Positions 26,275 through 26,592 of a stretch of DNA of 64,000 nt are shown here, in pieces; position 1 is the first letter of the stretch, and every line of letters begins with the position of its first letter. This stretch comes from Octopus vulgaris (Eukaryota): the NCBI GenBank assembly GCA_951406725.2, contig OX597839.1, forward strand, positions 21,390,001 to 21,454,000, given 5' to 3'. The notes under the pieces were generated by a model. It made no database searches and was not told the origin of the DNA. It saw only the letters and a list, made by a program, of their open reading frames with translations. Both the position numbers and the translations under genes were made by a program.

Positions 26275-26277
<3 letters not shown>

Positions 26278-26592
26278 GGTCCCGGGTTGAGTCGGGGTTA
26301 ACCACAGTAAATAAGGTACTCAATGCATAGCAGAGTAAATTAATTTATTTTATAGAAGGTGCTTCTACAGGACTAGAACTGTTTCATTCAAATTTACTTT
26401 ATCACTGATTCTTTTGACCACTCCCCTAAGAACGACAGTTTGTGCCCTGCTTACCCAAAAAACGTCCCCCACCGCCACCCCATTAAATCTGCCTAAATGT
26501 ATAAATACCAGACCTTATTTTGACAGCCAGCTTCCTGATGATTTCATTTGAATGAAACAGTTCTAGTCCTGTAGAAGCTCCTTCTATAAAAT
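26275..26592 (+). mobile_element. Penelope-like repeat cassette in (TA)n with a partial inverted repeat
   Basis: 26347-26393 is the reverse complement of 26546-26592; contains a hammerhead motif; (TA)n on both sides. Confidence 0.7.
26529..26579 (+). ncRNA. Type I hammerhead ribozyme
   Basis: Helix I AGCTTC/GAAGCT, CTGATGA core, short helix II TTC-ATTT-GAA, GAAA, helix III ACAG/CTGT, cleavage triplet GTA. Confidence 0.75.

Follow-up and report, generated by a model that had tools for sequence, protein, structure and literature searches.

A hammerhead-bearing cassette in an octopus TA repeat joins two 3' ends of one repeat family, probably a Hydra-clade Penelope-like element

The window, the whole 64,000-nt stretch of Octopus vulgaris contig OX597839.1 analysed here, comes from a 2.8-Gb, microsatellite-rich animal genome. 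Between positions 26275 and 26592 it carries a 318-nt cassette, embedded in a TA repeat, that consists of two 3' ends of one repeat family joined head to head, a long end in antisense and a short end in sense. Its features, with the basis on which each was assigned, are as follows.

26236–26274, no strand: left part of the (TA)n target (sequence)
26275–26393, minus strand: long arm, the antisense of an element 3' end (sequence comparison)
26275–26346, minus strand: 72-nt tail, in antisense (comparison with the full-length copies L065 and L066)
26347–26393, minus strand: inverted partial copy, comprising the 3' half of the ribozyme and the short end (98% identity to 26546–26592)
26392–26393, no strand: head-to-head junction, at which the arms overlap by 2 nt, AT (sequence)
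26392–26592, plus strand: short arm, made up of the final 137 nt of the 3' UTR/pLTR followed by the hammerhead and the short end
26500–26507, plus strand: TATA-box-like TATAAATA, 29 nt upstream of the putative RNA start and a candidate promoter element
26529, plus strand: putative transcription start, the first base of stem I (from DNA junctions)
26529–26579, plus strand: type I hammerhead of the Hydra type, with a predicted cut after 26573 (descriptor and comparison)
26529–26534, plus strand: AGCTTC of stem I (sequence)
26535–26541, plus strand: CTGATGA core (sequence)
26542–26553, plus strand: stem II region (sequence)
26554–26557, plus strand: GAAA (sequence)
26558–26571, plus strand: helix III (sequence)
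26572–26573, plus strand: TA, with the predicted cut after 26573 (sequence)
26574–26579, plus strand: GAAGCT (sequence)
26592–26613, no strand: right part of the (TA)n target (sequence)

An earlier note on the window had described a hammerhead at 26529–26579 and an inverted copy of its 3' half at 26347–26393. The letters of the ribozyme are as described, and a type I descriptor matches them when the first stem II pair may be U.U. The inverted copy is likewise present, and the arm that contains it extends further, to 26275, as the antisense of the 72-nt tail. This long arm ends 91 nt beyond the predicted cut site and is truncated in the stem II loop; because CUGAUGA is missing from it, it does not amount to a ribozyme on its strand. 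The short end lies 15–21 nt beyond the predicted cut, and the cassette is not tandem. TATAAAT is present at the TATA-like position in the subfamilies tabulated, and arms of sister subfamilies end at the first base of stem I, often with an additional G.

With its CUGANGA core, GAAA, UH and helices I–III, the motif has the make-up of a type I hammerhead. The descriptor detected it only with a U.U mismatch allowed at the first stem II pair, and with this setting returned two matches in the window versus none in each of 100 block-wise dinucleotide shuffles. In an Rfam search the hammerhead family was absent among the 150 of 219 matches listed, which were dominated by microsatellite miRNA noise. 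Damage to the window copy was considered as a source of the U.U at 10.1–11.1 and rejected: the mismatch occurs in all 55 full-length motifs tabulated, and is thus family-wide, and it is typical of Hydra. Across the same 55 motifs recurrent variation was limited to N7 and to loops II and III, a pattern of conservation that in the 3' half is partly ascertained by the search pattern.

Helix III has only 3 bp with an 8-nt loop, and loop III carries a CUAG palindrome. The active monomer fold was predicted at −5.1 kcal/mol versus a minimum of −8.8 kcal/mol, that is, 3.7 above it and with a probability of 3e-4, and no stable active monomer fold with a base pair at 10.1–11.1 was obtained. Helix III formed between two copies through the CUAG palindrome was predicted at −9.4 kcal/mol. 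The ribozyme is predicted to need dimerisation or the help of a protein, and the predicted monomer and dimer folds match the dimer-type behaviour reported by Cervera and de la Pena (2014, PMC4209133). With the minimal and dimeric hammerheads of metazoan Penelope-like elements (PLEs) in the available text of that paper, our family shares thousands of solo motifs per genome, opposite-strand pairs 100–700 bp apart, a palindromic loop III and a weak monomer fold. However, G10.1–C11.1 is highly conserved there and that pair is lacking here, and the 3-bp helix III with its 8-nt loop also differs.

The repeat family comprises 1,068 candidates, and the best 40 scored were mostly 95–98% identical over the sense arm. 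An exact 29-mer occurred in 7,809 copies, versus none for the reversed control, and a gapped pattern in 8,608. Copies have two types of end, short (15–21 nt past the cut; 18 of 30 loci) and long (91 nt past it; 12 of 30). Both ends are followed by a hairpin, and the two hairpins have dissimilar sequences. Walking upstream through a TG/TA-rich 3' UTR reached an ORF. Among 20 ORF-bearing loci, selected for the presence of that ORF, this ribozyme lay on the same strand about 2–4.7 kb after the stop in 19, while the twentieth contained only adjoining UTR; none of the 20 held an intact full ORF. L065 and L066 have the order pLTR-ORF-UTR-pLTR, with an ORF of about 710 codons that is frameshifted in both and a UTR of 3.2 or 2.4 kb. 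In these full-length copies the tail is the beginning of the 5' UTR that leads to the ATG of the ORF, and the distance from cut site to ATG is 137–138 nt. Their 3' UTR consists largely of TG/TA/TATG simple sequence and moves together with the element; the family thereby spreads microsatellite-like DNA, which is itself a supply of targets.

The cassette end is thus linked to a single ORF encoding an RT followed at the C terminus by GIY-YIG, the arrangement of EN+ PLEs. The pLTRs in partial tandem, the inverted truncated copy and the tail at one end, seen in L065 and L066 and in the long and short ends of 47 of 47 pairs, are also those of PLEs, and the ORF linkage bears out the Penelope-like origin that the earlier note had proposed for the cassette. 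The YRDDG and LVY...YIG motifs of the ORF protein were recognised by eye. PSDKTK, that is, DKT in place of DKG, is present in both L065 and L066; the N-terminal RWK position holds RIRWRS and so reads RWR; and protein P0001 contains a CxCx5C linker (CNCPDKTTC), a CxxC (CCDLC) and a CxH (CMH), with no CCHH motif found in it by eye. No Pfam family was matched by the ORF pieces or by three homologues. Protein homologues numbered 1,429 at E<=1e-20, mostly unnamed, the best being 44% identical. On these motifs, the family likely belongs to the Hydra clade of PLEs.

The Hydra clade of EN+ PLEs, including Hydra-1_Obim, was described by Craig et al. (2021, PMC8557442), and the available text of that paper shares much with what we find: an RT-then-GIY-YIG ORF with DKT, CxCx5C, CxxC and CxH; a pLTR that carries a type I hammerhead whose stem II is flanked by U...U; and insertion into (TA)n with an inverted 5'-truncated copy and a tail at one end. 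Its supplement, as far as available, gives (TA)n for every Hydra family except one, has an Octopus family among its entries and contains hammerheads whose stem II is mostly flanked by U...U. The hammerhead sequence in the Hydra-1_Obim row differs from that of the family studied here, and we therefore regard the two as distinct. Further differences from the clade as described there are RWR rather than RWK, a tail of about 72 nt rather than 30–40 nt, and size. Hydra elements are under about 3 kb, a tendency rather than a strict criterion (the source's wording is 'generally short'), whereas the ORF of 2.1 kb and the TG/TA-rich 3' UTR of 2.4–3.2 kb here give more than 4.5 kb. A ribozyme start site and ribozyme-only palindromes are not described in the available parts of that paper. 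The literature thus already has truncated copies in inverted orientation, tails on one side, targeting of (TA)n and hammerheads in pLTRs, and the cassette per se is an ordinary fragment of a new family within a known clade. A copy of the family adjoins a different PLE, a 4-kb inverted pair with 98% identity (L039 4431–8421 and L043) whose RT/GIY-YIG ORF has a CxxxxCxxC linker.

The earlier note had further suggested that the inverted copy could pair with the ribozyme and block it. The pairing was reproduced: in a predicted fold of read-through RNA the arm is paired to the ribozyme (−100.9 kcal/mol, z −9.6). It is nevertheless most improbable in our judgement that the arm serves as a dedicated antisense off-switch of the ribozyme. 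The junctions vary between copies, and only three of the best 40 matches, the window included, span the whole 318 nt, with differing junctions; arm lengths vary widely over 47 head-to-head pairs; the arm includes the 72-nt tail, a part that stays unpaired with the ribozyme; and inverted truncated copies are a described product of PLE insertion (PMC8557442, in the text available). The inverted piece is therefore likely a by-product of insertion, and the arm would block the ribozyme only incidentally, if the locus were read through.

It is also very improbable that the 318-bp unit is a mobile non-autonomous element or a retrozyme copied as a block. Two other loci do match the full 318 nt, at 87–90%, and the antisense arm of one of them, L002, stops at the same base; the sense arms of both, however, start at different places, tandem units are absent, and ORF-bearing copies have the same ends. 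Retrozymes consist of non-coding tandem units each with a hammerhead, an organisation that the cassette does not have. The animal non-LTR retrozymes described in a preprint (bioRxiv 10.64898/2026.07.22.740005, in the part available) share with it a type I hammerhead related to those of PLE pLTRs, whereas the cassette here is not tandem and is a fragment of a coding element.

To read the insertion products more widely, we took matches in order along the first 28 Mb of contig C1, which gave 111 arms. Ninety-four of these formed 47 head-to-head pairs, and 17 were unpaired by anchor, several of them having a more truncated partner. Every one of the 47 pairs combined a long with a short end (p = 7e-15); 36 were ribozyme-only palindromes, which we call minis and define as pairs whose anchors are at most 120 bp apart. 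The TATA box was passed by both arms in nine pairs, by neither in 36 and by one in two. Among 72 mini arms, the start falls on the first base of stem I in 23, within the ribozyme in 43 and upstream in 6, as judged by an ungapped estimate that is off in a few rows owing to mismatches. Genome-wide, 645 exact palindromic junctions are centred on stem I. Arms were concordant within the pair in 44 of 47 cases. The possibility that each insertion used two different RNAs was rejected, since the three discordant pairs are explicable by later mutation.

A published reading of head-to-head palindromes is that an antisense template primes itself (PMC3846280, in the text available). Under such a scheme a single cDNA or antisense template would fold back and self-prime, and the endonuclease would resolve the second arm at a TA-like short end. 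This would account for one long and one short end, for the palindromic junctions, including the 645 exact ones, and for the concordance of arms, which does not discriminate between the readings because fold-back fits it equally well. Other features argue against it and lead us to consider it unlikely. The arm with the long end should never be the shorter, yet the arm with the short end was the longer in 13 of the 29 unequal minis (the long-end arm was the longer in 16, and seven further minis were equal) and is also the longer in the window's own copy. Deletions of one or two Gs in the 3' arm of stem I, found in 13 of 111 arms (for example L089, L092, L099, L103 and L107), affected one arm in 12 pairs and both arms in none, with three of the 13 in long arms. 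An additional G stands on both arms, with a short spacer between them, at L239/L240, L242/L243 and L254. Moreover, with an antisense template no stop would be expected at a sense start site that bears a cap-like G.

The G deletions in stem I were confined to arms that stop before the TATA box (13 of 83, versus 0 of 28 arms passing it; p = 0.036). Reading them as cleavage scars was rejected, as they mostly remove the G four bases past the cut, beside a small hairpin. The two arms of the insertion L292/L293 have a substitution at the cleavage-site base in common, as would follow from copying of both from a single mutant template. The junctions of L229, L238, L246 and L157 contain fillers that duplicate nearby element sequence, a pattern resembling that of polymerase-theta end joining.

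Where arms end at stem I, they often carry a base that the element does not encode. In two sister subfamilies with a templated T, distinct from the window's own subfamily, 557 arms had a non-templated base before stem I, and 71 of the first 100 listed were G; the pattern used excludes a G two bases upstream. A control one base further upstream, in which two of the four bases could be tested and point mutations are included, gave only 22 arms, 10 with G and 12 with T. On inspection of 30 extra-base loci, 12 were removed, ten because the partner arm explained the base (five G, five not) and two with a sense duplication. Fifteen of the remaining 18 had G (p = 1e-6), two insertions being counted via both arms. 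An extra 5' G in L1 and SVA has been read as a reverse-transcribed cap (PMC2912911, in the text available). These junctions suggest that the element RNA likely starts at the first base of the predicted hammerhead; start site, cap and expression are here all read from DNA, and even if no start lay at stem I, its AGCT palindrome would favour end-joining at that point. Nor is the layout a general one, since in Drosophila virilis Penelope a TATA-less internal promoter starts transcription well upstream of the ribozyme position (PMC2377424; PMC4209133; both in the parts available). In the literature searched, outside which most subscription journals lie, we found no published description of a cap-derived G or of a ribozyme start site in PLEs.

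We propose that a TATA promoter in the pLTR would initiate a capped RNA on the hammerhead's first base. The element's protein would then nick both strands of a (TA)n target, and reverse transcription would begin at two internal sites, one per DNA end, 15–21 and 91 nt past the cut site. On the 5' pLTR the cDNAs would run off after about 65 and 135 nt, copying the cap and giving ribozyme-only palindromes, whereas cDNAs begun on the 3' pLTR would extend into UTR and ORF. The two cDNA ends would be joined by microhomology or filler, and the ribozyme would mostly be uncleaved when copied. Because the short arm of the window copy passes the TATA box, this copy derives from a 3' pLTR; because that arm is also the longer, the copy needs two cDNAs (or a later deletion). 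We consider it probable that the window cassette represents the 3' ends of a Hydra-clade PLE from two cDNAs, each nicked target strand having primed on the same region of sense RNA. As a broader statement, we lean towards the view that capped PLE RNA begins at the first base of the hammerhead, that each integration uses two sense-RNA cDNAs begun at fixed sites, one per DNA end, and that head-to-head insertions and the solo hammerheads of animal genomes are largely joined 5' run-off copies rather than self-primed or antisense products.

A pattern for arms beginning exactly at the cut gave 60 matches. Of the 57 inspected, 22 reflected stem I microhomology, 19 were small changes in an intact ribozyme and 16 were junctions. 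As a control one base upstream gave 14 junctions among 32, run-off at the cut site showed no excess and was rejected. Automated flags marked seven insertions with both arms ending at the cut, of which three were clear, three ambiguous and one false, and in two insertions bases were inserted at the cut. These sequences hint, weakly, at cleavage in a small minority of templates.

The same counts bear on the model of Cervera and de la Pena (PMC4209133, as far as available), in which cleavage by the ribozyme is followed by circularisation of the monomer, and the arms are made by reverse transcription of the circle. Every long arm crosses the cut site, as a religated circle allows, the core and stems are conserved, N7 and the loops being the sole places of recurrent change in the 55 full motifs (again with the 3' half partly ascertained), and the three clear insertions with both arms at the cut, as well as the two with inserted bases there, would also fit. 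A circle has no 5' end, however, whereas in 36 of 47 pairs the stop lies at the ribozyme's 5' edge or inside it, and starts at the cut were no commoner than one base upstream. We thus hold this model to be quite unlikely as the general route, although it may apply to a minority of long insertions.

The two internal starts have a counterpart in PAc, a Poseidon PLE of Anolis (Frangieh et al. 2024, PMC11167929). In vitro, according to the available text, both strands are nicked and extended, two internal RT starts downstream of the hammerhead define the tail and ribozyme cleavage is dispensable; AT-rich targets are likewise shared, as would be an uncleaved RNA template. PAc belongs to a different clade and its ORF starts within the ribozyme, and in the text available the start sites are not assigned one to each DNA end and inverted insertions are not treated. 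The origin of the inverted ends and one-sided tails of PLEs is named as an open question in the available parts of two papers (PMC8557442; PMC3846280).

PLEs are the closest relatives of telomerase, and the value of the present family lies in thousands of young copies that record an insertion mechanism. Their junction statistics predict, to the base, where the RNA begins, its cap, a separate start site for each of the two DNA ends and a template left uncleaved. Run-off copying would also give a simple reason for the tens of thousands of ORF-less hammerheads in genomes, with the caution that such motifs should not be taken as functional host ribozymes.

The earlier note had expected several ribozyme-bearing Penelope-like lineages to prefer TA microsatellites and the genome-wide ribozyme count to be very high. 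The TA association and the abundance of hammerheads stood up, and the Penelope-like assignment holds for the family of the cassette at 26275–26592, to which an ORF is linked. A (TA)5+ run lay within 130 nt after helix III in 109 of the 111 arms. In a genome sample of 60 segments of 10 kb at round coordinates (600 kb), the descriptor found 12 hammerheads in eight segments, versus none in each of 10 shuffles. Eleven of the 12 had (TA)6+ within 300 bp, compared with 29.5% of background (seven of eight by segment, p = 0.001). The sample extrapolates to about 56,000 hammerheads in the genome (29,000–98,000, a range that ignores clustering), which is a lower bound because the descriptor misses those at 38042/38081 and 52836. 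A (TA)n preference and thousands of PLE hammerheads per genome were already published (PMC8557442 supplement; PMC4209133, 2014; both in part). An unusual hammerhead density of the window itself was considered and rejected, with three matches in 64 kb versus about 1.3 expected.

Four unrelated hammerhead cassettes, all in or beside (TA)n, had been noted in the window. The lack of relationship holds, as no mutual BLAST similarity was found at E 0.01 among what are now five cassettes: one at 48349 had been overlooked, and the motif reported at 38077 consists of two hammerheads arranged as a palindrome (38042 minus, 38081 plus). The 26529 cassette has (TA)n on both sides; the copy at 48349 is 1.9 kb away from the nearest (TA)6, and a short AT-rich direct repeat flanks it. 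Its hammerhead core, on the plus strand, sits in a unit (48240–48600) of a family with 2,491 candidates, 352-bp tandems and inverted arms. This family is retrozyme-like and fits retrozymes better than the studied cassette does.

The palindrome at 37976–38217 combines a short with a long end and has a tail of about 70 nt. Its family has 695 candidates that show the same short-plus-long palindromes, a form for which the query selects. Its motif resembles the Hydra-2_aMil row of the Craig supplement (PMC8557442, in the part available), and its tail begins with a hairpin closed by TACTC/GAGTA, as does that of the studied family. A hammerhead with a long stem II at 57011–57384 belongs to a family (57106; 3,712 candidates) in which eight of 10 loci end on a TA run, with (TA)n about 230 nt after the motif, and whose copies carry partial tandem or inverted pieces. 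At 52700–52921 lies a degenerate copy of a minimal hammerhead (52836) with a CCGA core; its intact relatives L204 and L207, from the random sample, end on (TA)n about 100–125 nt downstream. The same sample contained further unrelated hammerhead families at L191, L210 and L173, two of them as head-to-head pairs. Elsewhere in the window are a near-perfect long hairpin (62321–62459), a 168-bp tandem array of 6.9 copies (10834–11985) and a 281-bp duplication (13676–14238).
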